This document shows, one piece after another, positions 29,537 to 48,272 of a DNA stretch of 64,000 nt; positions within the stretch are counted from its first letter, which is position 1, and every line of letters starts with the position of its first letter. The DNA is from Candidatus Moraniibacteriota bacterium (GTDB lineage Bacteria > Patescibacteriota > Minisyncoccia > Moranbacterales > DUUL01). Where the stretch lies: the NCBI GenBank assembly GCA_041583775.1, contig JBFHFF010000002.1, positions 64,274-128,273 on the forward strand, written 5' to 3'. Both the position numbers and the translations under genes were made by a program. The notes beneath the pieces are model-generated. The model saw only the letters and a program-made list of their open reading frames with translations, searched no databases and had not been told where the DNA came from.

Positions 29537-29857
29537 AGTTTTTTAAATTTAATTGATTAATTTCTTTTTTAGCTGAATAATAAATAAAAATATTTTTTCA
29601 AAACTATTTATTCTTATTTCCATTTTAGCACTATAAAATATTATAACAATTAAAAAATATCAAGAGATAATTCATAAGTAAAAAAATGACCAAAAAAAAT
29701 ACTCCTTTGAAATCTAAATTTTGGCTCTTCTTAACAACAAATATAATAACGAAATATTTATTGTTTTTCTTTATTTTTTTATTATTTATCTATTTATATT
29801 AATCCCAATTCAAATATAAAATTATATCTACTAAAAAATATTTTATAAAAAAACAAC

Positions 29858-29922
29858 CCCCTCGAGGAAGGCTGTCTTAAGATGCACGGGCTGTTGGATG
29901 AAGTTAGAACCTGTTTTTGTTA
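29858..29922. repeat. Intergenic repeat family, copy A: palindrome CCTCGAGG plus core GCACGGGCTGTTGGATGAAGTTAGAACCTGTTTTT
   Basis: Shares an approximately 36-nt core GCACG-N8-GGATG-WW-GTTAGAAC-YWKTTTTT with copies at 31276-31338 and 32987-33046. Confidence 0.5.
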
Positions 29923-29925
29923 TTT

Positions 29926-30249
29926 TTAACGATGATTAAGGCTTATGCTTAATTCTTTATTACTATTTTCGTCTATATAATCCTCATTAACTAAAATAAT
30001 TCTCAAATAGATCTCTCCCATTTTCCTTTCTTTTTCAAAACTAGCACTAAATTCACCGCCCTTCCATTCAAAGTCCCTTTTCCATCCAGCATTTTCTGCA
30101 ATTTCTATTACATCATTAAATGTTTGTTCGTTTTTTTCCTGATTTATAATTCTATATCTCAAAAGAATTTCTGCACATGATGGTTTTCCTAAAGTTTTTC
30201 CTTCAGGCATTTCAAATTTCCTAATCAGCTCTGTATTATTATATGTCAT
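29926..30249 (-). CDS. Hypothetical protein
   Basis: Open frame of 107 aa; no motif. Confidence 0.35.
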   Translation of the reverse strand: MTYNNTELIRKFEMPEGKTLGKPSCAEILLRYRIINQEKNEQTFNDVIEIAENAGWKRDFEWKGGEFSASFEKERKMGEIYLRIILVNEDYIDENSNKELSISLNHR

Positions 30250-30621
30250 ATTAACAAAAGGATCACCTTTAAGTGATTTCAGTTTTAGTTTATAAAATGA
30301 GCTGAATAAAAATATTCCGATAAAAATTGTAATTATAAAGAGAATACTAATTATAATTTTTGTTTTTTACCTTTCATTTTGTTTTCTTGAAAATCAAAAA
30401 TAAAATCATAATAATAGAAATTATTGTTAAAAATCCTGCTATAAGTATTACGCCCATACTGAAACCTGTATAGCAAAGAAAACTTGTTTCGGGGTTATTT
30501 TCCACACAAGGATATAATATTTTTCCTAAAAACCCATCTTTATTTTCAAAAAATGCAACCAAAACTGATATTACCAAAACTACTAATCATATAATAATCT
30601 TTCTATTCATAATAAATTATT

Positions 30622-31221
30622 TTATGGATTTACATACTCTCCCGGATTATATTCATAATTATCCAGCTCTGAACAATCTACTTCTTGTTTGGTCGGTCTA
30701 TGTATGTAACAATTGGTTCTCTTACCAATACAATTTTCTCCTGCTAAAAAATTAGATTTTATTAGACCTGTGCAATCACAGGAATACATCGTAGCCCCCT
30801 TCATTCTACCTACGCATTTTTTTGAAGGAATAAAAGTTGTTCCAACTTGTAATAGTAAAATAAAAATTGGAATTAAATAAAATATTTTTCTTTTTAATTT
30901 CCAAACAACTAATGTAACAGATAAAAAATATGCAAAAAACAAGAGCGGAGAAATATATTGAACTGAGCCAGCTGAAGTAAATAAAAAAATGATTAGACCT
31001 AGAATATAAAATAAAATTGATATTAGCAGTTTACCTGTTTTTATTCTATCTTTTTTCACAACCCAATAAACAACTCCGAGTAAAACAATTTGAGACACCA
31101 AAGAATTAAATGCCCCTGAATAAAATATTTTTAGTGAATTACCAAAAAAACCGCTTAAAATAAATAAAACGAAATTTATAGTTAAATAAATTATTAAGAA
31201 ATCAATTATTTTTTTATTCAT
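30622..31221 (-). CDS. Membrane protein with Cys-rich C-terminal extracytoplasmic tail
   Basis: 4-5 TM helices, then CVGRMKGATMYSCDCTG...CIGKRTNCYIH...CSELD. Confidence 0.4.
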   Translation of the reverse strand: MNKKIIDFLIIYLTINFVLFILSGFFGNSLKIFYSGAFNSLVSQIVLLGVVYWVVKKDRIKTGKLLISILFYILGLIIFLFTSAGSVQYISPLLFFAYFLSVTLVVWKLKRKIFYLIPIFILLLQVGTTFIPSKKCVGRMKGATMYSCDCTGLIKSNFLAGENCIGKRTNCYIHRPTKQEVDCSELDNYEYNPGEYVNP

Positions 31222-31275
31222 ACACTAATTATATCACAAAAGATTCTGACTTCCTACTGTCCCCATAAAAAATAA

Positions 31276-31338
31276 GGCTCTTTCAAGCCTTAAATTTAAC
31301 CGCACGCCATAGTAAAGGATGTTAGAACTATTTTTATG
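31276..31338. repeat. Intergenic repeat family, copy B: hairpin GGCTctttcaAGCC plus core GCACGCCATAGTAAAGGATGTTAGAACTATTTTTAT
   Basis: See copy A. Confidence 0.5.
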
Positions 31339-31482
31339 AATAAGAAAGAATATGTTTATATTCCGGATTTAAGATAATATAAAAACTATAATTCTTTTTA
31401 GAGAAATAAAAAAATTATATTATTGATAAATAAAGAATAAATTTAAAAAATTAATTTCAATTGAAGACATAATTAATTCTTC

Positions 31483-32145
31483 TTAAGAATTACCATACTT
31501 TCCTAGAAATTCCTCCCTAGAAATAGAAGCCGTAGCCTTTTTTAATTTTTCATCAATTGATTCCACACTAAACCCCAACTTCTCTTCTATAAATTTTCTA
31601 TGGTAATATACAATCCAGGAATATCCTTTGATTTTTTCAATTGAAGAAAACTCTTCATTTGATTTAATTTTTTGAGCTAATTCCTTAAAACCCTCGATTA
31701 AAACAGTTATTGTCTCCCTCATATCTTCAGTTGGTATTATCGGTATGTGTATGTTTATTTCTGTCATTGCCTCATTAAAATCATAGGAAAGAACTTCATT
31801 TATTTCTGAAAAACCGAATTCTTTACGATCTTCTCGTGAAAAATTTTTTATTTGTTCAAGTGTATAATTTTCGTTATAAAAACAAAAAAGTTCCCGTGCA
31901 ATAAAGTCAGCAAGCTCCTCCTTGCTCTTTATATTAACTATATTTAATCCTTCTAACCGTTTAACTGATTCGGTTCTTATACTGGATTTAATTTTTCCCA
32001 TTGTCTCCATAAAATAACAAAGCCGATCTTCTGGCTTCTCCCCTTCGGATTGCAAAATAGTACTGTAAATTCTTTTTTTAAATGAGTTTAAATAACTATC
32101 AGGCATTTTAGAAATATTTTTATTCAGATTTTCAATATTTTCCAT
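31483..32145 (-). CDS. Hypothetical protein
   Basis: 220 aa; no motif. Confidence 0.4.
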   Translation of the reverse strand: MENIENLNKNISKMPDSYLNSFKKRIYSTILQSEGEKPEDRLCYFMETMGKIKSSIRTESVKRLEGLNIVNIKSKEELADFIARELFCFYNENYTLEQIKNFSREDRKEFGFSEINEVLSYDFNEAMTEINIHIPIIPTEDMRETITVLIEGFKELAQKIKSNEEFSSIEKIKGYSWIVYYHRKFIEEKLGFSVESIDEKLKKATASISREEFLGKYGNS

Positions 32146-32160
32146 ATATTTATAATATTT

Positions 32161-32634
32161 TTATTTTATGATATGCAATCCATTCTCATCAAAACCCAAT
32201 AATCCTCTGTCTAAATTTTCATTCTCCACAATGTTTTTAAAACCATCTTTAAATTTTTTAAAATAACTAGAAACAATTACTCCCAATTTCATTTTGCTTA
32301 ACTCTTCAAAAGAAAAAAAATCTATCTCTTGTCCTTCATTTCCCAATTTAATATCTTTTATTTTATCTTCCGATAATTTAATCCAATAGAGAGAATGTTC
32401 CAGTTTATCTGGAATAATAATCTTACCAATTTCCTTTATTTCATCCTCTGAAATTTGAAGATTTGATTCCTCCTTAACTTCTCGAATCAAAGCCTCTATG
32501 GGAGTTTCGTTTGCTTCCAGATATCCACCTATCAATTGCCAGCAGTTAGGATCCGGGATTCTTGGATTATTATCGCGCAACAACATTAATACTTTTTTAT
32601 TACATGTTATTAAAGCTCCTGATGATTTTTTCAT
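32161..32634 (-). CDS. NUDIX hydrolase
   Basis: Nudix box GGYLEANETPIEALIREVKEESNL. Confidence 0.55.
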   Translation of the reverse strand: MKKSSGALITCNKKVLMLLRDNNPRIPDPNCWQLIGGYLEANETPIEALIREVKEESNLQISEDEIKEIGKIIIPDKLEHSLYWIKLSEDKIKDIKLGNEGQEIDFFSFEELSKMKLGVIVSSYFKKFKDGFKNIVENENLDRGLLGFDENGLHIIK

Positions 32635-32986
32635 ATTAATTTATTTAGATAATTTTTTTAGCAATCATTATATTCTCTTTCTTCTTATTAATTCCCCAAA
32701 GATAGCAAAAAAAATCTTTGGATCACTACATAGCCAGAACGGTCCTCGAACAGTTTTAGGTATTGCAAATTTTACATAATAATACCACTTAAAATCAAAA
32801 AATACCTCCCCTATTTGATTGATATTTTTATTTTATCTGCACAGGATGAGAGAAAAACTCACTCGCGAAGCTCTCAATAGGGCTTCCGCCCTCTTATCCT
32901 CCCCATTCTTCGTCAGTCACCCCAAACTGGAAACTTCCGTTTCCCAACCCCTTCCCACTTCGATTCTCTCCTTGCAAATTAAAAAT

Positions 32987-33046
32987 ACCCTTGAAAGGGT
33001 ATTTTATTTGCACGGGGTCGTGAAGGATGTTAGAACTATTTTTATA
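32987..33046. repeat. Intergenic repeat family, copy C: hairpin ACCCTTgaaAGGGT plus core GCACGGGGTCGTGAAGGATGTTAGAACTATTTTTAT
   Basis: See copy A. 22 of 22 identity with copy B over GGATGTTAGAACTATTTTTAT. Confidence 0.5.
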
Positions 33047-33250
33047 AAAAGAAGTGACCCTCTTTTTATTCCAAATTCAAAGAATATTTAGTCTATATGG
33101 TCTGTTTTTTAATAAATTTAAAAGATAAACCTACTTTTATAAAAAATATCGACTTCTCTTATAAAAACTTCCCTTAAAGTTACCTAAACCCTCCTTATAC
33201 AAGTAAATTCCCTTGTATTAGCCAAAATAACGACTTCCCTTATCTTAATG

Positions 33251-34711
33251 CTAACTTCTCTTAATTGAATATAATGCATTTATATCACGTTTTTTTGTGG
33301 TATTTTTTTCCAAAACATCCATTAGACAAAATTTGTTAAGATATCCTCTTATGACTTTATCACTTTTAGATAGGCTAATACTCAACTGTCCAACTGTGGC
33401 ACCATTGCTCGCCAAAATATACGACAATATTTCTATTTCTGTTTCATTCAAGTGTTTCCACATCGATTCAACCTTTTTCATCACAATCTCTGGGATAGCT
33501 TTTTCGTGATCTGCTATCTTATTCCTAAGTATAAGAGTAACTGTATTGTTTCTATCATAATATTTTGGCTCTGCCAACATTGATTTTTCCATCGATTCAA
33601 AAATACGAGAAACTCCTTCATTTAATTCTCGTACAAGTCCCAAATCCGACAACACTCGTGCTACTCTTGGATTCCTAGAAAATCTCTCTTCTCTTATGTT
33701 TTCAACTGTAACCTGAGCTGGCAAAGGTCCACTATTGGATATTTCCAAACGATCATCAAAATGTTTTATATAGATACAATTTCCTTGAACATTATACGAA
33801 CGATGGCAAAGAGCATTAACCAACCCCTCAAGCCACGCTTCTTCTGGATATTCAGAAATCTTTACAAATCGTCCCTTCTCTACATCTAAATAATAATAAT
33901 CTCTTAATGAGGCATAGATAAATTTCTGGAGATCCCTTGCAAGAAGTGGAATACATCCCTCAAAACGTTCGTCTTTGATAACGTTGTGATCCACTCCTGT
34001 CTTTGCCACCACTCCATCATAACGTATGTATCTAGCGCACGATGACGGAATATACTTATCGGGATTTTTTGCAAAAAGAAGAACGGCTGAGTTTTTATAA
34101 ACCACCTCATTTCCGTCTCTGATAGCTAGGTTCCTACTGAGAAGAAGTTCCTTGTAATCACCCTCAAATTTAAGCTGCTTCTTATAAAATTCTAGGGTTT
34201 TTTCTTCAAAATCATTAGTGTCAAAGTCTTTCCTAGGTTCATCTTCAAAGCTTCTTATTTCTCTGTCATATTCCAATTTACGGACCTCTTCTCTGGTCAA
34301 TGGACCTTTGTTTGAGTCTCCTATCCTTATATAAACATCTTCATTATCTTTTCTGCAAAATACTCTTTCGTAATCCTGTTCTATGTGATAAATAAATAGC
34401 AACTCACCAGAATCCAAAATTACTTCCTCAAGCTCTACATTCGCTGGAGGAGCTATAAAATCAAAACAAATTTTACGATACCGATCGATTAAATTAGTAT
34501 TCATTGTTTTTAAATCTTGAACACCATCTTGTTCAGAAACACCCACTACTATAATCCCGCCGTCAGCATTAAGCATTCCAATTATCTCATTAGCAAGCTT
34601 TGTGGGTTTCAATCCAGATTCCTCAATCCCTTTTCTCTCGAAATACTGTCCTTCTACTTTTTCTATTAGATACTCTACAGTTATTCTTTTATCTATTTTA
34701 GAAATACTCAT
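33251..34711 (-). CDS. Schlafen/AlbA_2 domain plus HATPase_c_4 plus C-terminal wHTH protein (so-called RecG-like putative regulator/ATPase)
   Basis: KLANEIIGMLNADGGIIVVGVSEQDG (AlbA_2). ALCHRSYNVQGNCIYIKHFDDRLEISNSGPLP (HATPase_c_4). Confidence 0.7.
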   Translation of the reverse strand: MSISKIDKRITVEYLIEKVEGQYFERKGIEESGLKPTKLANEIIGMLNADGGIIVVGVSEQDGVQDLKTMNTNLIDRYRKICFDFIAPPANVELEEVILDSGELLFIYHIEQDYERVFCRKDNEDVYIRIGDSNKGPLTREEVRKLEYDREIRSFEDEPRKDFDTNDFEEKTLEFYKKQLKFEGDYKELLLSRNLAIRDGNEVVYKNSAVLLFAKNPDKYIPSSCARYIRYDGVVAKTGVDHNVIKDERFEGCIPLLARDLQKFIYASLRDYYYLDVEKGRFVKISEYPEEAWLEGLVNALCHRSYNVQGNCIYIKHFDDRLEISNSGPLPAQVTVENIREERFSRNPRVARVLSDLGLVRELNEGVSRIFESMEKSMLAEPKYYDRNNTVTLILRNKIADHEKAIPEIVMKKVESMWKHLNETEIEILSYILASNGATVGQLSISLSKSDKVIRGYLNKFCLMDVLEKNTTKKRDINALYSIKRS

Positions 34712-34846
34712 AAAAAATTATTTAATTAAAAAATATTTACCATAATCGCTTAAAACAAAACTATCTATACGCATATACTAATTAATTATCTTTATCGTCA
34801 ATGTCTTTAGATTATTTCAAAAAATTGAAAAGCTATGTTTTTAATT

Positions 34847-35491
34847 TTATTTTCTTTTCTGAAAAATCCTTAATTTACTTATCTTATTTTTAATAGCAGC
34901 TGGCATAAAGCCAAAGTGACCATAGAACACCCACATATAGGTAAGAAAAAATATAATGTTAGCAAATAAAAAAAATATAGATACGTACTTGTTCTCCAAA
35001 AAATTATTGGTCAATGAAAATATGACCGTGCATATAATAGAAATGAAAGACGGCAAAATAAAGGTGCTAAACACCACCATATAAAATGCTGTATCTTTTT
35101 TGAAATTCAAGAAAATAATTTCACTCCCCTTTTTTGTATAACTTTTTATCAGTTCCGTATTGTAACGAACTACATTTTCTTTTCCTGACAATTCTTTTAT
35201 TCTGCTCTCAATTTCACTACTCAGATATGCCCGTAATTCCACAACATTGAGAGCATTATCCAACCACCACAAACCAAATAAAGCTGATTCGATAGGTACC
35301 AAAAAAATCAACCAGCGACCAAGAGGAAGTAAAAAAATTCCTCCTAATATTGTCGTGATCGTCGCAATGTGCATCTGAAGAAGTGTATTTTGAGCGTTAC
35401 TTCGATTTTGCACCTCAGTATTCAAAACGTTATACTCTACAAGGACTGCGGATAGCGCATTTCCATCTATTTCTTTTGTTGCTTTGTTCAT
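34847..35491 (-). CDS. Membrane protein, hypothetical
   Basis: 4 TM helices; no motif. Confidence 0.4.
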   Translation of the reverse strand: MNKATKEIDGNALSAVLVEYNVLNTEVQNRSNAQNTLLQMHIATITTILGGIFLLPLGRWLIFLVPIESALFGLWWLDNALNVVELRAYLSSEIESRIKELSGKENVVRYNTELIKSYTKKGSEIIFLNFKKDTAFYMVVFSTFILPSFISIICTVIFSLTNNFLENKYVSIFFLFANIIFFLTYMWVFYGHFGFMPAAIKNKISKLRIFQKRK

Positions 35492-35782
35492 AATTTTGTT
35501 TGATTGCTCGTCCGCAGGGCTATTTGACAGATTAATGCCTTAATTGTAACACAGGAGTTTTCATATTACACTAATTTATATAAAAAATAGCTAACAAAAA
35601 CACTTTGGAAATCCACACCCAGCGATGGATACTATAACCATTTTTATTGGAAAAGAAGGGAATGGTTATATTTAAATATCAATCTCTTTAATTCAATTTT
35701 GTTTGTTTTGAATTTCTAGAAGGAATATATTCCAAAACCTTTTCGACCTCATTGACTGTTGCATCTAGGTCAAACTCCCCAT

Positions 35783-36631
35783 CTATTTTTTCACTCTCTG
35801 AATCAATTTTATTTTTAATACGTCCGTGAAATGAAGTCTTATTTTGTTTTCTCTATATTTTTCCAAAAACTCTTCATCTTTTATGGTTGCTTTTATAATC
35901 TGGTCTCCTTTACCACCCAACCTAAACGACCACTGCCTTGGGTCAGCGTCAAAACTTCCTCTTTTTGGACTTACAAAAATTTCCATCTCCGTTTTAACCT
36001 CTTCTTCTACTGCTAAGGAAGGTATTTCTGCTTCTGAATAATTTCTAAAACTTTCTACATCACCTTTGTTAAAAGTAACTTTTGTTTCTTCTTCTTCCTT
36101 TTGTAAATAACAATCTATACTTTCTACGTTATCTCCTTCCAATGGTAGACCATATGAATTATAAACAAATTTTTGTATATTATTGTTCGAAAATAATTGA
36201 TGAGTTCTACTGCCAACTACAAAAGCATTACCCTCTTCATTTGTGTATCTAATCTCATTAGGCTTTAGTTGCTCCACTGTTTTAGGCTTCCCTTTTAGTT
36301 TTTTTATTAACCAAAATAGACTTCCTCCTCCTCCAGTAATTAACCCTACCCACTCAAGCAGCTCCTTTATATCCTTTGTGCTATCCTTATTTATTAAATC
36401 TAATATTCCTTGACAATTATTTTGAGCAAACAATACAATATCAACAATAAAAGAGCCTTCCCTAAAAGGTTTTATGTTAACAGCGACCTCCCTACCATTA
36501 GGATTTAAAATTTTATTGCTCTCTTTTATCAGCTCGCCGAGGGATAACAATACTGGTGCTAACTCGAAAACATCCAATCCACAATCAATATTCTTGCCAT
36601 CTAACCGATAAATAAAATTAACCTTTTTCAA
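35783..36631 (-). CDS. Hypothetical protein (downstream neighbour of the RelA/SpoT-fusion gene)
   Basis: 282 aa; no motif. Confidence 0.45.
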   Translation of the reverse strand: MKKVNFIYRLDGKNIDCGLDVFELAPVLLSLGELIKESNKILNPNGREVAVNIKPFREGSFIVDIVLFAQNNCQGILDLINKDSTKDIKELLEWVGLITGGGGSLFWLIKKLKGKPKTVEQLKPNEIRYTNEEGNAFVVGSRTHQLFSNNNIQKFVYNSYGLPLEGDNVESIDCYLQKEEEETKVTFNKGDVESFRNYSEAEIPSLAVEEEVKTEMEIFVSPKRGSFDADPRQWSFRLGGKGDQIIKATIKDEEFLEKYRENKIRLHFTDVLKIKLIQRVKK

Positions 36632-36669
36632 TATAGTATGCTAATTAATTATGTTTTGCTGCCTCCTTT

Positions 36670-36847
36670 ATTATACACGATTTTTATCAATAAATCTTTC
36701 TATTTCACCACCCTTGTTCCGCTCATCTATCTTCAAGAGTAAATCGAAAAAACCAACGAAATTACTTTTAGACTCAGAGACCTCTTTATCAGTTAATTTT
36801 TTTCCACTTAATTTTTCATAAAACTCTTTGTTGCTTTTTTTATTCAT
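36670..36847 (-). CDS. Small hypothetical protein (about 58 aa) between the RelA/SpoT-fusion gene and 35783-36631; not in the ORF track. Coordinates are approximate (plus or minus 1-2 nt at the 3' end)
   Basis: Hand translation gives MNKKSNKEFYEKLSGKKLTDKEVSESKSNFVGFFDLLLKIDERNKGGEIERFIDKNRV. Confidence 0.3.
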
Positions 36848-36935
36848 AAATATAAATATTTATTTAAAGTATTTTTCTATACTAACTTATGAAAAAATCC
36901 AGACCTTAGCTCCGAAAAAAATCTGTCGATAGATA

Positions 36936-39974: not shown

Positions 39975-40252
39975 AAAAATTCATCTTTGAAACTTATTGC
40001 CTTAATCATACACCCAGACATTATCTTTACAACCTAACTTAAATTCAAAAAAGTTATAGCCAAAAAATCTCTACTTCTAAAAAAATAAAGGAAAATGAGC
40101 TTTGTTTATAGTCGAATTCTTTGTTCCACCTTTTATAGATCTATATCAAGCAATTGACTAGGATTAGATATAAGATCTACATTAATCAACCTATCAAACG
40201 CTTTTTCTTTTTTCAACACCGCTTTTTCACTTTCAAACGGAAAATCTTCCAA

Positions 40253-40519
40253 CTAAACAAATTCTTGACTAAAATCAATTGCCTCAGTCTTCAATGTCCC
40301 CCAATTCGTTGGTAGAATCCCCTGAAGACACCTAGGAGGCTCCTCTCCTGTCTTTTGCTTGATATGTTCGATAGCTGGGCTTGCGTCTCCCTTGCAGTGC
40401 ATGGTGAGCCAATAACACTTGTGTTTATTCGTTACCTTTTCTAAAAATTCTACTGCGCCAATTGCCCAGTTACCATCTTTAGTAAGAAGAACTCCATCTA
40501 TGTCTAGATATACATTCAT
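40253..40519 (-). CDS. Small HAD-like hypothetical protein
   Basis: N-terminal DIDGVL motif. Confidence 0.35.
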   Translation of the reverse strand: MNVYLDIDGVLLTKDGNWAIGAVEFLEKVTNKHKCYWLTMHCKGDASPAIEHIKQKTGEEPPRCLQGILPTNWGTLKTEAIDFSQEFV

Positions 40520-40564
40520 TTTTAATAAATTGCTAATTATAGAAACAAGGTAATTCTAAGTAAC

Positions 40565-40804
40565 TTAAAGAACCTCATTTTTACGCGCAAGAAGTTCTGC
40601 ATCTTCCAATCTGATTTTCTTTCGATACGCAAAAAATACTTTTTCTACTATTTTAATATCTTCCAACGAATACTTCCTTCCCTTTTCGAGTGCCTCTTTC
40701 AAAACGTACATTATTTCTTCTTCAGAGAATTTTCCTGCATTAAATGCATTAAAGTCTCCTGTTTCATTTGTATATTCATTTTTAATATCGATGATTTCCA
40801 TCAT
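40565..40804 (-). CDS. Small hypothetical protein
   Basis: 79-aa open frame. Confidence 0.3.
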   Translation of the reverse strand: MMEIIDIKNEYTNETGDFNAFNAGKFSEEEIMYVLKEALEKGRKYSLEDIKIVEKVFFAYRKKIRLEDAELLARKNEVL

Positions 40805-40839
40805 ATCTTCTCTTGAAATCCCTTTATGCCCCTCGACTA

Positions 40840-41511
40840 TTAATATCCCCCAGATACAGTCTTCATACTCTTCGTCTCTCTTTTTTCCCTCTCAATGGTT
40901 TCATCGTCTGACACAGACATACCATCAAAAGATCCTGCATAAGTACAACAAACTACCCTACCATTCGGCAAACAAAGATACGTCATAATGGCACTATCTT
41001 CTGTTCTCATCCCCTCTAAAAGATATTTTACTTTTTCATCCTCTTCCTTAGAATGAATCTCAGCATTCCCATCTTCAACTATGGATGTGATTTTCTCATT
41101 CTTTATAAAACATTGGGGAACTCTAACTATTTCACCCTTCTTAATTTTCTCACGGATAATTTTTATATGTCTGTCAGTAGCAAATGATGATCCATTCAGA
41201 AACTCTTCCACGTCATTCATTTCCAAATGAAATTTAATAACTGCCCAGTCATCTTCATAAAAAGCATTTAACCCCTTCACATTTTCTTTTAGATCAATTT
41301 TTCTAAATCCCTTAACATCAATTAAATAGCCAGATTCTCTGTCAAAAAAAGACTTGCGAAATTTAATTCCACCGCCGTCCCTTTCATCGAACATTTTTTC
41401 ATCATTTTTTATGTAAGATTTTAGCTCTTTTAATCTCTTATAGCCTAAAATAAAAGACACTACCAATCCGATACATAAACCTGACACAAGATAAGTTGTT
41501 TCTATTGGCAT
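40840..41511 (-). CDS. Hypothetical protein with N-terminal TM
   Basis: 223 aa. Confidence 0.4.
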   Translation of the reverse strand: MPIETTYLVSGLCIGLVVSFILGYKRLKELKSYIKNDEKMFDERDGGGIKFRKSFFDRESGYLIDVKGFRKIDLKENVKGLNAFYEDDWAVIKFHLEMNDVEEFLNGSSFATDRHIKIIREKIKKGEIVRVPQCFIKNEKITSIVEDGNAEIHSKEEDEKVKYLLEGMRTEDSAIMTYLCLPNGRVVCCTYAGSFDGMSVSDDETIEREKRETKSMKTVSGGY

Positions 41512-41559
41512 AATATTTGTTTATTAGCTTGCTTTATTATCCTGACATACTCAAAGTAT

Positions 41560-41870
41560 ACATCCTACCTAAGAAAAAGGTACTAAAGAATTGCATAAAC
41601 CAAAATAATAGAGGCTAAGCCATTTGATCTATTTGCGCCAAGTCCATTTCGAGATTCAACAGGCACATCTCCTCCGTCATATCTGGGTGCTTCGCTTGTA
41701 GTTTCTCTACTGCTTCCCAAATCATTTTTGGATTGTACGTCGCTAGTGTTGGGTACTACTTTGGGTCTATCGATTTCATATTGTTCATATTGTTTAGTTA
41801 TACTATTTAGATATGACTCTTCTTTTTCCTTCGCTCATTTTTGTATCTTTCTTTAGTATAATATCCTTTT
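41560..41870 (-). pseudogene. Possible gene remnant: GC-richer segment with protein-like but frame-broken reading frames
   Basis: The minus strand gives protein-like peptides in two frames (...PKMIWEAVEKLQAKHPDMTEEMCLLNLEMDLAQIDQMA and ...VVPNTSDVQSKNDLGSSRETTSEAPRYDGGDVPVESRNGLGANRSNG) interrupted by stops. No ORF of at least 60 aa. Confidence 0.25.
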
Positions 41871-41873
41871 GTA

Positions 41874-42386
41874 TTAATCAACGACCTCTGCCCACTCTTG
41901 AAATTTTGGTGTCATTTTTCTTGCTAAATACATCGCAAACATAACATTCTCAAGATTTTTCTCAGCCTTCAATTTCTTAGATAAAAATTCAGAAAATTCA
42001 ACGGAAACAATAGTCAGATCTTTATCATCCGCATAAATTTCATCGTATTTTCTGTAATGCAAATTAAAATCATCGCAAACAAGTTGTTGTGCTTTGGAAT
42101 CATAACCAGATTTTTTCAATCTATTATAATACTGATTATGCACTTCATCTAGAATTGCTCTGTGCATTAATCCAAGAAAAACATCTGAATTTTTGAACAA
42201 CCAAAAGGAAAGTGCCGTCAATTCAAACTTAACAATTTCCTTTGTTTCTTGATCTTTTATTTTCCCTTCTTCCTCGAAATGATCAATAGTCTCCATAACT
42301 ATCTTAGCAATCTCTTCAAGGACAAATAAAGCACTTCCTCTTATCATTTTTTTATACCTCTGATACTTTAGAAATTTTAATAACAT
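41874..42386 (-). CDS. Hypothetical protein
   Basis: 170 aa. Confidence 0.4.
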   Translation of the reverse strand: MLLKFLKYQRYKKMIRGSALFVLEEIAKIVMETIDHFEEEGKIKDQETKEIVKFELTALSFWLFKNSDVFLGLMHRAILDEVHNQYYNRLKKSGYDSKAQQLVCDDFNLHYRKYDEIYADDKDLTIVSVEFSEFLSKKLKAEKNLENVMFAMYLARKMTPKFQEWAEVVD

Positions 42387-42391
42387 AAAAA

Positions 42392-42535
42392 CGACTTAAT
42401 TGTTAAGTCGTCGGGAAGTTTATCTCGAGAGGACGACCCGGCGGTATCCACATTCAAGAAAACACCAAGTGTCTCTATTGTGTGCACCGAATCGCCCACT
42501 AAAAGGCGCAATAGAGACAAGCGTAGCTTGTTTTA
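42392..42535 (+). ncRNA. GC-rich structured element (candidate cis-regulatory leader or small RNA); strand uncertain
   Basis: ACGACTTAA-ttg-TTAAGTCGT (9-bp hairpin) overlaps the alternative GTCGTC...GACGAC pairing. Then GTCTCTATTG...CAATAGAGAC (10-bp stem, inner CGCC/GGCG) followed by a U-rich tract. Local GC is well above the flanks. Confidence 0.3.
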
Positions 42536-42654
42536 TGATGTTTATTTGAATATGGATACACTTCCAATATACAATCAAAGTTAATTTAGCACAACTAATC
42601 TTATTGTTTTTTGTCTGATATTAAGTTAAATTAGAGTAAATTAAGATTAAAATT

Positions 42655-43473
42655 ATGCAGTCTGCAATCAAATCATTAAAAAGAAGATTCGAAGTTATAA
42701 ATAGCTCCAATGGTAAGAAAACTTTTATTCCAGCCTTGTTTCAGTATTTAAAATTTGCGACCAACAATAAAAAAATTTCACAAATACTAAAAGAATTGGA
42801 GAAAAAGAGGAACAACGAGCTCAAAAAGCTCAATCTTCGGCAACTTCCCTTTTTAGAAGAAACAGAAATTTGGCCCCATTGGGGAAAAATAGAACCAGCC
42901 TTATTATTATCTGGCAAATCATACCACAAGGCTAGTGAAACCTTTTTGGAAGAGAAAAGGAACGATTCAGTCCTTGACTTTCTTCACTTTAGAGCAGGAA
43001 ATAACTCTTTTAATGGAGCGCCTACAAATGAACAACTTGCAAATCTTATGGTAAGTATAAAAATTGTTCACAACTTTTTACTTGATGAACTTGAAAAGGT
43101 TGAGCCAGAAAAAACATTAGTAACGGAAAAAAACGGGGATTTTTATTATAATAACTTTCTGATAAATTTTGGTGAGGGAACACAATATAAAGAGCTTTTT
43201 AAAATAATTTATACCGAATGCAGCAATAGCAAAGAAAGTTTTATATCCTATAAAAAAATAAGCTTATTATTAGACAAAAGAACTAATACAAACGGACCGA
43301 TCAAAAAAACTGACAGGCAATCTTCACAAAAAAAAATCCAAAACTTAATAAGAAACGGCATCTTTAGAACTGGCAAATTAGCAAATAAGAGTAACTTAGA
43401 AAATATAACCCCTTCTGGAAAAAAACTAATTGAGATAATCCGAGGGAAAGGAATCAAATTGAATCAAGGATAA
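42655..43473 (+). CDS. Hypothetical protein
   Basis: 272 aa; no motif. Confidence 0.45.
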   Translation: MQSAIKSLKRRFEVINSSNGKKTFIPALFQYLKFATNNKKISQILKELEKKRNNELKKLNLRQLPFLEETEIWPHWGKIEPALLLSGKSYHKASETFLEEKRNDSVLDFLHFRAGNNSFNGAPTNEQLANLMVSIKIVHNFLLDELEKVEPEKTLVTEKNGDFYYNNFLINFGEGTQYKELFKIIYTECSNSKESFISYKKISLLLDKRTNTNGPIKKTDRQSSQKKIQNLIRNGIFRTGKLANKSNLENITPSGKKLIEIIRGKGIKLNQG

Positions 43474-43499
43474 ACATATTCAGCTTAGAAAAGTTTCTC

Positions 43500-43528
43500 A
43501 AAAGACCCTAAATGGGGTCTTTTTTGTT
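43500..43528 (+). terminator. Rho-independent terminator
   Basis: AAGACCC-taaat-GGGGTCTT followed by T6. Confidence 0.6.
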
Positions 43529-43626
43529 TATTCTAAGCGACTCTAGCATTTTAAGCCAAATAAGTTTTTCCAAGTAATTGTCCTTTAAGAAATAATTACT
43601 ATAGATAAACATTAAAACACTAAACA

Positions 43627-43863
43627 ATGAAAGACAAAGAAAGGGTTTATACTTCTGATTTTTTGACAGCAACAATTTTTTTGTACTTCAAAGAAGAGTT
43701 AAAGGAACTTAATAAAAAAGACCCTAGTAGAATTATTTTTTGTTTTCTTAAAAATGAAACCACTGATAAAACATTAGAGTTACTTCATAAAGGTAAATTA
43801 AAGGTCGAACCAAAAAAATTAGCTTATATTCAAAGAAGTCTAAAAAATAGGATGTTTAGCTAA
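43627..43863 (+). CDS. Small hypothetical protein
   Basis: 78 aa. Confidence 0.35.
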   Translation: MKDKERVYTSDFLTATIFLYFKEELKELNKKDPSRIIFCFLKNETTDKTLELLHKGKLKVEPKKLAYIQRSLKNRMFS

Positions 43864-43881
43864 CATCAATATTATCTTAAT

Positions 43882-44052
43882 ATGCTTTCAGAAGATCAAA
43901 TCCTAAAATTTCAAGAAATCTACAAAAAACGCTTTGGAAGAGAAATCTCCAAAGAAGATGTTCTTGATCATGGAATTAAATTGATTTATCTGATGCGAAC
44001 AATTTATCAGCCGATCACAAAAAAAGAGCTGGATAATCTACTAGAAAAATAA
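43882..44052 (+). CDS. Small hypothetical protein (56 aa; not in the ORF track)
   Basis: MLSEDQILKFQEIYKKRFGREISKEDVLDHGIKLIYLMRTIYQPITKKELDNLLEK fills the gap before the primase-like gene. Confidence 0.3.
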   Translation: MLSEDQILKFQEIYKKRFGREISKEDVLDHGIKLIYLMRTIYQPITKKELDNLLEK

Positions 44053-44058
44053 CATCCT

Positions 44059-44643
44059 ATGAACAACAAAGAATACTTCTATAAACAACAAAAAATTTGG
44101 CGAAAAGAACAGCTTAGACCGTCGGCAAAAGATCTTCTCATAATGTTTCCCCGAGCAAAAGAGATTGTGAAAGAAAGATTAAAAGAAGAAATAAAAATTA
44201 ACAAAACCCAACTATGCAAAATAAAGAAGGTCTTAAATAAAATGAGGTATAGAAAAGATTTTTGGTTTGTTGAGGAATTTGTAAAAGCATTTTTCTTACC
44301 AGACCTCTTGAAAAATGAAAAAATGATTGCCAAACACAGAATGTTCCTAAATAGCTTACAGGGAGACGGGAATCAAATCGATTTTCAAGTAAAGCTTGAA
44401 AAAGCAAGGGGATATCCAATCCTCCAACTTGCAGAGAAAGAACTGGTTTTGCAAAAAATTGGAAACAAATATCGCTCTTTATGTCCTTTTCATAAAGAAA
44501 AAACAGCTTCTTTTTATCTTTATCCAGAATCAAATAGTTATTATTGCTTTGGATGTCAAACTGGATCATCTGACCCGATATCCCTCGCTATGCAACTACA
44601 CAATTTAGATTTTAGAAGTGCCGTTAGTTTATTGAGTCAATAG
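44059..44643 (+). CDS. DNA primase CHC2-type zinc-finger domain protein (DnaG N-terminal-like)
   Basis: CPFHKEKTASFYLYPESNSYYCFGCQTGSSDPISLAMQL. Confidence 0.65.
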   Translation: MNNKEYFYKQQKIWRKEQLRPSAKDLLIMFPRAKEIVKERLKEEIKINKTQLCKIKKVLNKMRYRKDFWFVEEFVKAFFLPDLLKNEKMIAKHRMFLNSLQGDGNQIDFQVKLEKARGYPILQLAEKELVLQKIGNKYRSLCPFHKEKTASFYLYPESNSYYCFGCQTGSSDPISLAMQLHNLDFRSAVSLLSQ

Positions 44644-44749
44644 TAACAATTAAGATTAAAATTATGACAATGAAGAAAGAGAAGAGACTAAAAGAAATTG
44701 AAGATGAAATAAAAACAGAAGCCAAAAAAAGATTATACATATTGCTTCA

Positions 44750-46069
44750 ATGATCTTACAAGATAAAACAATTGTTGAAATGGTATTAGACAAAGAAGAA
44801 AATAAAACATATTTTGCTACATATAAAGATAATGAAATAAAAAGAGAAGCAAGTTTGGAAATAGAAGAAAAACTTTTTCTACCCTATCCAGCTGATAAAG
44901 ATTTTCTAACCAACGATGTCATTCTTTTTCCGTCTGCTCCAATAGAGTATGTTGATCAAAAAGAACTGATTAAAGAAATTCAATATTTCGTTCATAAATA
45001 TCTTACTGTCTCTGATTTTTTTGAGAAAATTTGTACTTATTATGTTCTTTTTTCTTGGATTTATGATGATTTTAAAGAGCTTCCTTATTTGAGAGGCTTA
45101 GGAGATTATGGCACAGGGAAATCAAGATTTCTAAAGACAATTGGTTCAGTTTGCTACCACCCAATTTTTACAAGTGGGGCAACGACTGTTTCGCCTATAT
45201 TTAGGATGCTCAACGATTTCAAAGGAACTCTAGTCTTGGATGAAGCGGACTTAAAAATATCAGACACTACAACCGAGCTGGTTAAAATATTGAATTGTGG
45301 TTTTGCTAAAGGGACTCCAGTTCTTAGAAGTGAAGGCAATGGCAAATCCTTCGATGTTAAGGCTTTCCACGTTTTCGGTCCAAAAATAATTGCGACAAGA
45401 AAATTATTTGACGATAGCGCTCTGGAAAGCAGAATGATTACTGAGGATATGAATCAAAATTTTCCAAGAAAAGATATCTTGATTCATATACCCTCTGAGT
45501 TTGAAGAAGAAGCTTTGTGCCTAAGAAATAAACTTTTAATGTTTAGGTTTAGGAATAAGGGAAAATCCTTTATAAAAACTGAATTTGAAGATAGGAGTAT
45601 CGAACCACGCTTAAATCAAATTGCAGTTCCCTTAATGAGTGTTATTGATGATGCACAAACCATAAAAGAGCTTCAAAAATACATAAGGGAGTACAATGAC
45701 ACAATAAAAACAGACCGGACTCTAGATTGTAATTACCAAATATTGGAATCTATTGTTTTGCTTTTAGACAAGGGAAATATGGAACCAACTATCGGTGATA
45801 TAACCAGACAATTTAATGAAAATTTTGATTCTTCAGATACAATAACCCCCAAGAAAATGGGTTACTTATTAAAGAAAACATTAAATTTAAAAACGATAAA
45901 AACAAGAGATGGTTATATCGTTTCAAAAGATAATAAAGAAAAAATTGAAATATTGCGAAAAAGGTTTGGAATTGAACTAATTTCCGACGTTATTAATGAT
46001 GTGAACAATGTGAACAATGTGAACAATGTGAACAATAAAAAAGAAGATGTACAAGAAATAATGTTTTAA
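44750..46069 (+). CDS. P-loop NTPase (primase-associated / D5-P4-like helicase-type), with C-terminal NVNN tandem repeat
   Basis: Walker A GDYGTGKS, Walker B LVLDEAD. Confidence 0.5.
   Translation: MILQDKTIVEMVLDKEENKTYFATYKDNEIKREASLEIEEKLFLPYPADKDFLTNDVILFPSAPIEYVDQKELIKEIQYFVHKYLTVSDFFEKICTYYVLFSWIYDDFKELPYLRGLGDYGTGKSRFLKTIGSVCYHPIFTSGATTVSPIFRMLNDFKGTLVLDEADLKISDTTTELVKILNCGFAKGTPVLRSEGNGKSFDVKAFHVFGPKIIATRKLFDDSALESRMITEDMNQNFPRKDILIHIPSEFEEEALCLRNKLLMFRFRNKGKSFIKTEFEDRSIEPRLNQIAVPLMSVIDDAQTIKELQKYIREYNDTIKTDRTLDCNYQILESIVLLLDKGNMEPTIGDITRQFNENFDSSDTITPKKMGYLLKKTLNLKTIKTRDGYIVSKDNKEKIEILRKRFGIELISDVINDVNNVNNVNNVNNKKEDVQEIMF
45992..46036 (+). repeat. Tandem 9-bp repeat (GTGAACAAT x4, plus a degenerate copy) encoding NDVNNVNNVNNVNN
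   Basis: Direct reading of 46001-46036. Confidence 0.8.
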
Positions 46070-46189
46070 ATAAAGTCTTTTTCACAAAAAATAATTGCTT
46101 TTCCATTATCAGAATAAAGTTCACAATATTCACAACCTCAATGAAAATATCTGAAAATCTTAACAAACCTTAACGTTATCCATCCAATT

Positions 46190-46447
46190 ATGCGATATAA
46201 CTTATCGAAGAGAAAATTAACTTTTGCATATTACTATTTTGATTTTGAAAGAAAGTATTCCTCTTGCTTGGCTGGCAATGCTTATCGATGTGCACTCAAA
46301 GTAAATTACAGCAAAACTTATGCAAAAAAGATAATGTCTCATATACATTGGACCGAATTAGCGAAATTAGCAGAAAAACAGGGCTTAATGATGGATAGAA
46401 GTCTCAAAAAATACCTAGACAAAATATCAGAAAATGTTAGAAAATGA
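46190..46447 (+). CDS. Small protein, possibly terminase-small-subunit-like / HTH
   Basis: KRKLTFAYYYFDFERKYSSCLAGNAYRCALKVNYSKTYAKKIM loosely resembles the Terminase_2 N-terminus. Weak. Confidence 0.25.
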   Translation: MRYNLSKRKLTFAYYYFDFERKYSSCLAGNAYRCALKVNYSKTYAKKIMSHIHWTELAKLAEKQGLMMDRSLKKYLDKISENVRK

Positions 46448-46499
46448 TAACATTGAACATCTATGCTATAATGAAAACACTTACCCAATTCACAATATA

Positions 46500-46590
46500 C
46501 CAAGAATTTTATGTTTCGCTCCTAAGTGGGCGGTTCTGCCAGCAAAACCATTCTTGGTCGAGTTGGGTAAGTCAGAACCGCCTTTTTAGT
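46500..46590 (+). promoter_or_regulatory. Nested inverted repeats upstream of the recombinase gene (candidate att/regulatory site or long-loop terminator)
   Basis: CCAAGAAT...ATTCTTGG and GGCGGTTCTG-N34-CAGAACCGCC followed by TTTTT. Confidence 0.35.
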
Positions 46591-46611
46591 ATTAAAATTT
46601 ATTAAACTTAT

Positions 46612-48231
46612 ATGGAAACAAAAAAACCAAGGTTACAGTATTTTTTATATGCCAGAAAATCATCCGAGAGCGAAGATCGCCAGGTTCAATCTATCGATGA
46701 CCAAACTGGACGTTTAAAACGATTAGCGCAAGAATTAGGCATAACCATAAAACATATCTACACGGAAGCTAAATCAGCCAAAAAACCTGGTAATCGCCCA
46801 TTTTTTGACAAAATGATGACTGAAATAGAAAGTGGTGAAGCTGATGGCATTCTATGTTGGCATCTTAATCGTCTCTCTAGAAATCCGATTGATAGTGGAA
46901 AGATAAGTTGGCTTCTACAGGAAGGGTCTATCAAATCGATTCAAACAATGGAAAAACAGTTTCTTCCAGAAGACAATGTCTTGCTTTTTAGTGTTGAAAG
47001 TGGAATGGCAAACCAATTTTGTCGAGAACTAAGCACAAACGTAAAAAGAGGTATTCAAAAGAAGCTGGAAGACGGCTGGAGACCTGGTATAGCGCCACAA
47101 GGATATCTAAATGAACTATCTAACCATACAATCATAAAAGACACTGAGAGGTTCAATCTTATAAGGAAAGTGTGGGATTTAATGCTCACTGGAAATTACA
47201 CTGTTCCTCAACTACTAATTAAATTAAATGATGAATGGGGATATAAAACTCCTCTCAAAAAACGCCTCGGCGGTAAACCTTTAACTATAAGTGGTCTTTA
47301 TAAAGTTTTCACTAATTTATTTTATACTGGAATAATTTTGCATAAAGATCAGACTTACCCAGGGAAACACGATCAAATGATAACCCTCGAAGAATATGAT
47401 CAAGTTCAGTTAATATTGGGAAGAAAGGGGAAGCAAAGACCTAAGACTCATAATTTCGCTTTTACTGGAATGATTAGGTGTGGAGAATGTGGTTGTCTTC
47501 ATACAGCCGAAACAAAGAAAAAAATAATCAAAAAGACAGGAACTCTAAAAGAATATACTTATTACCACTGTACGAGAAGAAAAAAAGACATTGATTGTTC
47601 GCAAAGAAAGGTTTTAAATCAAGATAATCTGGAGTTGCAAATCAATGAATTATTAGCTACCTACACGATATTGCCAGAATTTAGAGACTGGGCTTTGGAA
47701 ATTGTTCATAATAGCAAAAATCTAGAAATCGAAGATAAATCAAAAATTCTAGACTCTTTGCGCAATGAATTGCTAAAAGCTGAGGAAAATTTAAACGAAT
47801 TGATTAAAATGAGATACAGAAAATTGATTGATGATAAATTTTTTATTAAAGAAAAAGAGACTCTTCAGATGCAAATATCCAAATCAAAAGAAAAGCTGAA
47901 GAAATCAGGCGGTGAAAAAAATAAACAGTTAGAACTCACGAAAAAAACTTTCAATTTCGCAACATATGCCCGAATAAACTTTAATAAAGGCACATTAGAA
48001 CAAAAAAGAGAAATTCTAGCTGCTTTAGGTTCGAACCATAGAATCACTGACCAAAAACTCTTTGTTGATGCCCATAAATGGTTCCAGCCTATTAGAAAAG
48101 ACTATCCTCGATTGGAAGAAGAATATATAAGGTTAGAACTAAATAAATCTCCCTTAAATAAAGCAAAAAGCGAGCAATTAAGCTCGCTCATTACACGATG
48201 GCACGGGTGGAGAGAATCGAACTCCCGCTAG
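46612..48231 (+). CDS. Large serine recombinase (integrase)
   Basis: N-terminal resolvase catalytic domain FLYARKSSESEDRQVQSIDDQ...LNRLSR. Central recombinase domain and zinc ribbon CGECGCLH...YYHC. The 3' end overlaps tRNA-Trp. Confidence 0.8.
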   Translation: METKKPRLQYFLYARKSSESEDRQVQSIDDQTGRLKRLAQELGITIKHIYTEAKSAKKPGNRPFFDKMMTEIESGEADGILCWHLNRLSRNPIDSGKISWLLQEGSIKSIQTMEKQFLPEDNVLLFSVESGMANQFCRELSTNVKRGIQKKLEDGWRPGIAPQGYLNELSNHTIIKDTERFNLIRKVWDLMLTGNYTVPQLLIKLNDEWGYKTPLKKRLGGKPLTISGLYKVFTNLFYTGIILHKDQTYPGKHDQMITLEEYDQVQLILGRKGKQRPKTHNFAFTGMIRCGECGCLHTAETKKKIIKKTGTLKEYTYYHCTRRKKDIDCSQRKVLNQDNLELQINELLATYTILPEFRDWALEIVHNSKNLEIEDKSKILDSLRNELLKAEENLNELIKMRYRKLIDDKFFIKEKETLQMQISKSKEKLKKSGGEKNKQLELTKKTFNFATYARINFNKGTLEQKREILAALGSNHRITDQKLFVDAHKWFQPIRKDYPRLEEEYIRLELNKSPLNKAKSEQLSSLITRWHGWRESNSR

Positions 48232-48272
48232 AGGTTTTGGAGACCCCTGTACTACCACTATACTACACCCGC
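48199..48272 (-). tRNA. tRNA-Trp (anticodon CCA)
   Basis: The reverse complement folds as a cloverleaf: GCGGGTG/CACCCGT acceptor stem, anticodon loop CTCCAAA, T-loop TTCGATT, 3' CCA encoded. Confidence 0.8.

Follow-up and report, generated by a model that had tools for sequence, protein, structure and literature searches.

A probable tandem array of units inserted by a large serine recombinase at the tRNA-Trp gene of a Moraniibacteriota bacterium

The DNA stretch analysed here (the window, 64,000 nt of contig JBFHFF010000002.1 from a Candidatus Moraniibacteriota bacterium) contains an island of about 18 kb next to a tRNA-Trp gene, and the gene for a large serine recombinase (LSR) at the edge of the island runs into the tRNA. 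What kind of mobile DNA is this, did it arrive as one piece, and what becomes of the tRNA gene which it has entered? The reading that we favour, with a probability of about 75%, is that the region of 29.88-48.20 kb is a tandem accretion array whose three units were inserted site-specifically at the 3' end of tRNA-Trp by an LSR. A preliminary description of the window had proposed one island of about 18 kb at this tRNA. Horizontal acquisition, integration by an LSR and the extent (18.3 kb for the composite array) were retained from that proposal; the single element was not, and is replaced by one complete element, designated E2, and two cassettes without recombinase.

Junctions and order of the array

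The features that define the array are given below. Loci of other genomes are designated L with a number, att stands for attachment site and ORF for open reading frame.

48199-48272, minus strand: tRNA-Trp (cca), the integration target (the sole tRNA found in the window by ARAGORN; Rfam, 62.9 bits; aligned with L010, L011, L015 and L054)
48201-48207, minus strand: attR core CCCGTGC, common to all junctions, with the predicted crossover dinucleotide GT at 48203-48204 (from the spacing of the zinc-ribbon-domain (ZD) motif)
46612-48231, plus strand: LSR of E2, 539 aa (PF00239, PF07508, PF13408; phrog_95)
48168-48189, minus strand: terminator hairpin and T-run for the tRNA, supplied by the element and located within the C-terminal coding region of the LSR (best match of the terminator scan; fold)
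33010-33037, minus strand: site B, attL-type junction AGTTCTAACATCCTTCACGAC-CCCGTGC, left end of E2 (pattern search)
32981-33006, minus strand: terminator-like hairpin and T-run after site B, at the tRNA-proximal end of cassette C1 (fold z = -4.8)
31330-33009, minus strand: cassette C1, about 1.7 kb between sites B and C, without recombinase; GC-rich structured stretch 32840-32985, NUDIX gene 32161-32634, 220-aa ORF 31483-32145
31302-31329, minus strand: site C, degenerate junction AGTTCTAACATCCTTTACTAT-GGCGTGC with 3 mismatches to the arm/core consensus, followed by the hairpin 31273-31292 (terminator scan)
29912-31301, minus strand: cassette C2, about 1.4 kb between sites C and A, without recombinase; 199-aa Cys-rich membrane ORF 30622-31221, 67-aa ORF, 107-aa ORF 29926-30249
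29847-29911, minus strand: site A, outermost junction GGTTCTAACTTCATCCAACAG-CCCGTGC (29884-29911), then ATC, the hairpin 29857-29871 and a T-run; left boundary of the array (fold z = -2.6)

The recombinase was identified by the Pfam domains Resolvase (PF00239, 2.8e-19), Recombinase (PF07508, 5.3e-05) and Zn_ribbon_recom (PF13408, 4.3e-09), and its best PHROG was the integrase family phrog_95 (2.5e-66). That its gene ends inside the 3' end of tRNA-Trp, as initially described, was confirmed with ARAGORN, Rfam and Pfam: the final 33 nt lie within the convergent tRNA gene. The tRNA and its trailer provide the last LSR codons, about 14 in number, and the protein tail is ...WHGWRESNSR. The hairpin that follows the tRNA in its own direction (-17.8 kcal/mol, z = -4.7) is thus part of the recombinase gene. 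An encoded CCA was detected only in the element-occupied tRNA-Trp genes, namely those of the window and L104, and was missing in L010, L011, L015 and L054. This pattern agrees with an element which supplies the nucleotides 3' of the crossover.

The loci of relatives were collected by a scan of GTDB representative genomes with ribosomal protein L1 as the anchor, which also placed the host in Moraniibacteriota (Patescibacteria, or candidate phyla radiation, CPR). The context is chromosomal, since 5S and 23S rRNA genes were located at 55.5-58.9 kb of the window by Rfam, and the right flank of the island shows the housekeeping order nusG-rplK-rplA-HAD-tRNA-Trp. In the three nearest relatives among the genomes examined (L010, L011 and L054) the island is missing; the preliminary description had proposed such a comparison. 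In L011 and L054, rplA and tRNA-Trp are followed almost directly by homologues of the window genes at 14.7-18.7 kb. The closest relative, L010 (L1 protein 92% identical), is collinear through tRNA-Trp and about 10 nt of its trailer, and synteny returns at window position 26810, immediately before the start codon of the DUF2177 gene; 2.9 kb of unrelated DNA lie between its two syntenic stretches. None of the window genes of 26.9-48.2 kb was found at the tRNA-Trp locus in any relative compared, and therefore the region downstream of tRNA-Trp is regarded as a nested variable hotspot.

The far ends of the units were recognised by a short repeat. The native tRNA, which lacks CCA, ends with the 7 nt CCCGTGC, and this 7-mer recurs on the tRNA-sense strand in intergenic DNA (29884-29890 and 33010-33016). 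The pattern GTTCTAAC-N12-CCCGTGC, which combines element arm and core, had exactly 2 matches in the window and 0 in 100 shuffles, and the extended consensus gave a third, degenerate copy at 31302-31329 (core GGCGTGC at 31302-31308), again with 0 in shuffles. No repeat of the tRNA 3' end of at least 12 nt, or with up to 3 mismatches, was detected on the island side; the true duplication is the 7-nt core, recognisable only together with its flanking arm. A duplication near 29.9 kb, which had been anticipated earlier, was thereby found in this short form, and the left edge that had been drawn near 29858 falls in the hairpin after site A. Each junction copy is followed by 3 nt and then by a hairpin with a T-run. 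The 3 nt are ATC after site A, as in the trailer of the CCA-less tRNA of L010, and AAA after site B, as in the trailer of L011. In the direction of the tRNA, the order is tRNA-Trp, E2 (33.01-48.20 kb, 15.19 kb from core to core, with the LSR), site B, C1, site C, C2, site A with its terminator, and host genes. The C2 proteins are orphans.

The same arms were detected outside the window. The 2.9-kb insert of L010 contains two more copies of the 28-nt arm/core motif, with 0 and 1 mismatch over the 24 specified positions, and 26-27 of the 28 nt of site B are identical to these two sites. They bound a 0.43-kb cassette with a 74-aa Cys-rich ORF and a 0.93-kb cassette with a 183-aa membrane protein, with no recombinase nearby. 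Neither the other 56 rplA loci nor shuffled sequences contained the motif.

Two candidate landmarks were rejected. A 13-nt inverted match to the tRNA-Trp T-arm (TTCGATTCTCTCC, 32959-32971), 40 nt from site B, was judged to be due to chance (blastn-short E = 0.11), curious as its proximity to an att site is. The native trailer of L010 was not found at the far end of the island, and the L010 trailer proved to be part of a cassette.

The alignment of the junctions shows an invariant core, an element arm A-GTTCTAAC-(A/G)TCCTTCAC... and a tRNA arm GAGTTCGATT-CTCTCCA. In the element arm (GTTCTAAC-N12), 12 nt separate the distal motif GTTC(T/G)A... from the core, and in the tRNA arm (GTTCGATT-N7) the distance is 7 nt, which is an offset of exactly 5 bp toward the centre in the tRNA (attB) arm compared with the element (attP) arm. 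In serine integrases, the ZD motif lies 5 bp nearer the centre in attB than in attP, at positions 11-19 and 16-24, respectively (PMC3783163). With these registers, both arms would put the central dinucleotide at the GT of CCCGTGC. The circle of E2 is predicted to contain the attP junction ...AGTTCTAACATCCTTCACGACCCCGT joined to GCCATCGTGTAATGAGCG... (also written as AGTTCTAACATCCTTCACGACCCCGT joined to GCCATCGTGTAATGAGCGAGC), and the predicted chromosomal junction after excision of E2 is ...TTCGATTCTCTCCACCCGT joined to GCAAATAAAATACCC. The attP-arm pattern was absent from IMG/VR. No convincing inverted motif was found in the P' and B' arms, and the geometric fit is therefore partial.

From these data, the following course of integration is proposed. 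Recombination would take place between attP, whose P arm contains AGTTCTAAC-N12, and attB, formed by the T-arm and the acceptor end of the tRNA (AGTTCGATT-N7), within the shared core CCCGTGC and probably at GT. The element would replace the last nucleotides of the tRNA, here adding the encoded CCA, and would bring a new terminator hairpin inside the C-terminal coding sequence of its own LSR. Each new arrival would push the earlier units and their hairpins away from the tRNA. E2 would be a complete integrative element, which may still be mobile and able to transfer. Its plus-strand backbone comprises an orphan ORF, DUF5659, a 56-aa ORF, the CHC2 protein, the AAA+-like NTPase, whose gene has the iteron-like repeats, and the LSR; its cargo lies on the minus strand. 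The distal units of 1.7 and 1.4 kb may be either mobilisable in trans or deletion remnants. Because the LSR ORF crosses the att site into the tRNA, two C-termini are predicted: the integrated form should end with ...WHGWRESNSR and the excised form, read in frame from site B, should contain ...WHGVVKDVRTIF... instead. No excised-form variant was found, and the protein cluster of this LSR is a singleton.

The strongest competing explanation is that the distal cassettes are leftovers of full-size elements after internal deletion, that only E2 was ever mobile and that the array records past integrations. Accretion followed by decay has been described for the tRNA islands called tycheposons (10.1101/2020.12.28.424599), and the degenerate core of site C (GGCGTGC) and the lack of any recombinase in the cassettes are compatible with it. 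Blastx against 17 LSRs gave no significant match left of site B that would represent a recombinase pseudogene. However, hardly any difference (0-1 mismatch over 24 specified positions) separates the arm of site B from those of both L010 sites, whereas the genes between the junctions have nothing in common. Each cassette has also retained its two ends, one with a terminator hairpin and one with the P arm. Repeated random deletion is unlikely to have preserved both ends and near-identical arms. Recombinase-less cassettes of the staphylococcal cassette chromosome (SCC) kind are, moreover, mobilised in trans (PMC11470126). The decay of once full-size elements is considered possible, at clearly less than even odds, and an array of three separately inserted units is preferred.

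Several observations concern the surroundings of the array. The GC-rich stretch 32840-32985 in C1 folds much better than shuffles on the plus strand (z = -4.1) and is 75% identical to L106 6372-6461 over 100 nt; it had no Rfam match even at E <= 1 and could be an element-borne small RNA or a decayed coding remnant. Window 26811-29883 is further variable DNA outside the att-bounded array: it is absent from L010 and contains cation-efflux, MinD/4Fe-4S and two FeMo-co-like genes (26.8-29.9 kb). The window shares the block of 18800-26810 with L010, but L011 and L054 lack it. Neither of these two stretches contained att-like sites. The Logan contig SRR29257458_14520 is collinear with the window from about 25.8 kb to the inside of the tRNA, and its break is uninformative. 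Exact-protein look-ups of the flank proteins HAD and L11 returned no record. The HAD hydrolase gene (48278-48913), located between rplA and tRNA-Trp, is absent in L011. Insertions are common in CPR rRNA, and the 23S rRNA match of the window (55823-58944), with 3122 nt compared to the 2925-nt model, suggests them here.

Recurrence of the architecture and the replication module

The survey of the family comprised the window and 83 loci, 80 of which came from a metagenome scan; in 15 loci the NTPase gene is followed by a complete LSR ORF. In 9 of these 15 (about 60%, window included) a tRNA or tmRNA gene converges on the LSR gene and contains the LSR stop codon within its 3' end:

Window: tRNA-Trp, overlap 33 nt
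L104: tRNA-Trp, overlap 33 nt
L166: tRNA-Trp, overlap 11 nt
L005: tRNA-Asn, overlap 40 nt
L113: tRNA-Asn, overlap 40 nt
L004: tRNA-Gly, overlap 10 nt
L107: tRNA-Asp, overlap 42 nt
L156: tRNA-Ile, overlap 87 nt
L129 (3659-3973): tmRNA, overlap 22 nt, which widens the target range from tRNAs to tmRNA

The LSR of L104 is 66% identical to that of the window. In addition, a 576-aa LSR, only 29% identical to the window LSR, overlaps tRNA-Trp by 31 nt in L015, another Moraniibacteriota genome which was found independently via rplA. Since the overlap recurs in these 9 loci and in L015, it is not attributable to chance. The LSR tails are antisense-tRNA peptides (...HGWRESNSR or ...DSNPRP) because the ends of the genes lie in tRNAs. 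In every overlapping locus the tRNA end is followed after 9-14 nt by a terminator-like hairpin and T-run inside the LSR C-terminal coding region; the layout of the window is found in L004, L005, L015 and L104.

L004 was fully delimited. The last 15 nt of its tRNA-Gly and 1 further nt form a 16-nt direct repeat which recurs 13,456 bp away, just past a Schlafen/HATPase_c_4 gene, and is followed there by the native trailer and terminator. Distal att copies were not located in L005, L015 or L104. L104 was tried as a minimal cargo-free element, and its size is not claimed because the left att was not found within the contig. The recurring plus-strand backbone is a 260-600-aa ORF, DUF5659 and small ORFs, the CHC2 protein, the NTPase, a protein of about 218 aa, a protein of about 107-123 aa and the LSR, with the same order in L004, L005, L008 and L104. 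The LSR is followed by host genes, and the opposite flank of the backbone has variable cargo on the other strand.

Further observations were made at individual loci. L005 contains a second, divergent serine recombinase (561 aa, 368-2053) about 12 kb upstream of the tRNA-Asn-associated one, which suggests tandem full-size elements; no att copy was found for it. Small GIY-YIG genes (70-88 aa) occur beside the target tRNAs of L004 (14383-14983) and L005 (14533-14869). Direct repeats of 20-24 nt on both sides of these genes take in the 5' end of the tRNA or sequence upstream of it and suggest a separate small mobile cassette, inserted beside tRNA genes. Rfam LOOT RNA motifs were detected upstream of the backbone in L110 (8310-8434) and L174 (1855-1975), and a DUF3800-IX RNA directly follows the recombinase gene of L110 (14352-14420).

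In the window, the backbone consists of the following features upstream of the LSR:

42655-44052, plus strand: start of the backbone, with a 272-aa orphan ORF (42655-43473), a 78-aa DUF5659-like ORF (43627-43863) and a 56-aa ORF (43882-44052), in conserved gene order
44059-44643, plus strand: CHC2 zinc-finger protein, 194 aa (PF01807 at residues 121-193; position conserved in 15 loci)
44750-46069, plus strand: P-loop NTPase, 439 aa, the hallmark of the family, with Walker A GTGKS, Walker B LVLDEAD and a C-terminal winged helix
45999-46036, no strand assigned: perfect 9-nt tandem repeat ATGTGAACA, 4.2 copies, at the 3' end of the NTPase gene (TRF)
46190-46589, plus strand: two orphan small ORFs, 85 aa (46190-46447) and 51 aa (46434-46589), in place of the ~218-aa and ~107-aa genes of relatives

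The DUF5659 match was weak in the window and strong in L104, and the 56-aa ORF was present in 5 loci. The earlier assignment of a CHC2 primase was correct for the zinc finger and incorrect for the primase: the protein has the DnaG-type zinc-binding domain only (TIGR01391, 67.6 bits vs a cutoff of 283.6, positions 16-87 of 414), and no Toprim, Prim-Pol or other catalytic domain was detected with Pfam and NCBIfam. It does not qualify as a DnaG-type primase. The Walker A/B NTPase reported upstream of the LSR was verified.

More than 2,400 NTPase homologues at 45-71% identity were found, and the named organisms among them were all CPR (Moranbacteria, Taylorbacteria, Patescibacteria group). The NTPase had no sequence match in PDB and no Pfam, PHROG or NCBIfam family, and a structure search gave only weak AAA+/winged-helix similarity. 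In some CPR contigs, its relatives are fused to Prim-Pol/PriCT_1. In phage contigs of IMG/VR, relatives are fused to a complete CHC2 and Toprim primase, and one such contig has a large terminase. At least 3 tandem copies of a repeat near the NTPase stop codon were detected in 19 of 81 family loci, 18 of them with the 9-nt period, and several share a GTGAAC core. The NTPase is probably a replication initiator or helicase, and the repeats at 45999-46036 are candidate origin iterons; a joint role in initiation is plausible.

The 85-aa and 51-aa ORFs had no Pfam, PHROG or NCBIfam match and no homologue in about 180 related loci, and no remnant of the 218-aa and 107-aa genes of L104 was found in the window. 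Likewise, no Pfam or PHROG function was obtained for the backbone proteins of relatives (423/261/594 aa, 218/225 aa and 107/123 aa).

Cargo and the phage-derived alternatives

33251-42386, minus strand: E2 cargo of about 9 kb, with genes for 170-aa, 223-aa, 79-aa and 88-aa proteins, the RelA/SpoT fusion, a 58-aa protein, the LAPAL/PDC-S42 protein, a 214-aa membrane protein and the Schlafen protein
36936-39974, minus strand: RelA_SpoT fusion, 1012 aa (Pfam; PADLOC PDC-S33)
35783-36631, minus strand: LAPAL/PDC-S42 protein, 282 aa (PADLOC PDC-S42 over the full length, 1e-40; NCBIfam LAPAL)
33251-34711, minus strand: SLFN_AlbA_2 and HATPase_c_4 protein, 486 aa (Pfam; PADLOC, N-terminal part of the pAgo model)
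32161-32634, minus strand: NUDIX protein of C1 (Pfam; PADLOC PDC-S07)

The defence-associated families named initially (Schlafen/AlbA_2-HATPase, NUDIX and the RelA/SpoT fusion) were confirmed with Pfam and match PADLOC candidate families. The cargo of E2 is enriched in such candidate anti-phage families, as distinct from validated systems. The 282-aa protein has conflicting curated labels, PADLOC PDC-S42 and NCBIfam NF053583 'LAPAL motif-containing putative phage structural protein' (154.7 bits, cutoff 60). Essentially no homologues of the E2 cargo were present in other family loci, which indicates that the cargo is variable and unique to each element; L004 has Schlafen and DUF805, and L005 has Macro, HD and DUF805. 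A 31%-identity homologue of the giant RelA/SpoT-fusion protein was observed in another Moraniibacteriota genome (L034 13279-15723), about 3 kb downstream of rplA, in a locus where ARAGORN found no tRNA.

The preliminary description had classed the island with phage-inducible chromosomal islands (PICIs): E2 would be induced by a helper phage, replicate with a pri-rep module and be packaged in helper capsids via a TerS-like protein. Integrase, putative replication-initiator module (CHC2 protein and NTPase) with iteron-like repeats, accessory or defence cargo like the defence hotspots of satellites, and a size of 13-15 kb (about 15 kb for E2) do resemble PICIs and the Staphylococcus aureus pathogenicity islands (SaPIs), relatives of the NTPase occur in genuine phage contigs, one with the large terminase, and one cargo protein carries the LAPAL label. 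What decides against it is packaging. No TerS, capsid, portal, terminase, head-size-redirection, Ppi-like or other packaging-redirection gene was detected with Pfam, PHROGs and NCBIfam, either in the window or among the backbone proteins that relatives have conserved, and PICI membership fails on this point. The supposed TerS-like protein is the 85-aa orphan, absent from all of the ~180 loci; its assignment failed in the profile searches, an outcome which the same description had named as grounds for giving up the proposal. Furthermore, no master repressor was recognisable by profile search, the integrase is a serine and not a tyrosine recombinase, no evidence of a helper phage was found, and IMG/VR contained no close relative of E2 (nothing with the single-protein query; only distant primase-fused homologues in unrelated phages with the profile query). 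A satellite lifestyle is without positive support, and we consider a PICI unlikely.

A decayed prophage, i.e. the remnant of a temperate CPR phage with a serine integrase whose structural genes were lost, is very improbable: serine integrases are frequent in temperate phages, the best LSR match is the phage integrase family phrog_95 and NTPase homologues occur in phage contigs, but a compact backbone without structural genes and with intact ORFs (45-71% identity) is present in many unrelated CPR contigs, which therefore points to a maintained element type rather than random decay, and the 13.5-kb element of L004 is complete, has att repeats and lacks structural genes. In the window, neither virion structural genes nor a terminase gene were detected with Pfam and PHROGs, the sole hint being the LAPAL label.

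Significance and comparison with known systems

CPR bacteria, or Patescibacteria, make up a large share of bacterial diversity and have tiny genomes. To our knowledge, few mobile elements have been described in them and no genetic tools exist. The locus defines a widespread element family, judged by the number of NTPase homologues, with explicit att sites, namely a predicted attP of about 50 bp and an attB in tRNA-Trp. It would offer a mechanism for the build-up of defence-type and other accessory genes in reduced genomes, and candidate site-specific integrases for the engineering of CPR bacteria. Regeneration of the tRNA end together with a replacement terminator embedded in the recombinase gene would be a tidy solution for targeting an essential gene; an earlier description of it is not known to us, nor was one found in the literature searched.

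A broader and tentative idea, for which we would claim well under even odds, is that phylum-wide LSR elements turn the tRNA 3' ends of Patescibacteria into platforms for gene capture that resemble integrons. Cassettes without recombinase, all provided with a tRNA terminator of their own and a conserved attP arm, would be stockpiled and exchanged in trans. The switch of the LSR tail between ...WHGWRESNSR and ...WHGVVKDVRTIF... could then be a built-in sensor of the integration state.

No description of the E2/NTPase element family was found in the literature searched, the coverage of which was incomplete, and an earlier description is possible; for genomic islands of Patescibacteria, only generic reports were found there. 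Serine integrases of temperate phages (A118/LI, Bxb1 and phiC31) usually target protein-coding genes. They share with the window LSR the three-domain organisation, the short core with a predicted central dinucleotide and, as far as the P arm and the tRNA arm are concerned, the 5-bp ZD shift in attB (PMC3783163). In contrast to them, attB here is the T-arm and acceptor end of a tRNA, the element restores both the 3' end of the tRNA and its terminator, and virion genes are lacking. Serial integration also implies relaxed selectivity of the att pairs, unlike in these integrases.

Tycheposons of Prochlorococcus and other marine bacteria integrate in tRNA or tmRNA genes and accrete in such a way that the most recent and most variable DNA adjoins the tRNA; their tandem elements are parted by partial tRNAs, they have primase/helicase modules and cargo-carrying and PICI-like forms, and a minority have LSRs (10.1101/2020.12.28.424599). 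The array agrees with this description in tRNA/tmRNA targeting and tRNA-proximal accretion. Tycheposons mostly use tyrosine recombinases (910 of 937) and have att repeats of about 40 nt, whereas the array has an LSR and a 7-nt core with a 21-nt conserved arm. Capsid or terS forms were not seen in the array family.

The closest functional analogue is SCC, where serine recombinases act at the 3' end of a housekeeping gene and tandem, recombinase-less, defence-rich cassettes are mobilised in trans by Ccr (PMC11470126), with a replication module beside the recombinase (PMC7581432). Tandem arrays which include recombinase-less cassettes with the same att repeats correspond to sites A, B and C of the window and to sites 1 and 2 of L010. 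SCC is staphylococcal and targets the 3' end of rlmH, while the array belongs to a CPR bacterium and targets tRNA-Trp. The window LSR is not an orthologue of Ccr (NCBIfam CcrB 65.2, CcrC 53.3 and CcrA 49.5 bits vs cutoffs of 700-900, that of CcrB being 900), and for this reason and because of the different target the array is not a member of SCC. The replication genes are also unrelated in sequence, CCPol-MP-Cch2 in SCC and the CHC2 finger with a novel NTPase here, and only here does the LSR ORF itself cross the att site into the target. With these differences, SCC-like tandem cassettes with candidate defence cargo are the best analogy, and the array would be a natural parallel, in a lineage very far removed from theirs, to both SCC cassettes and tycheposons.

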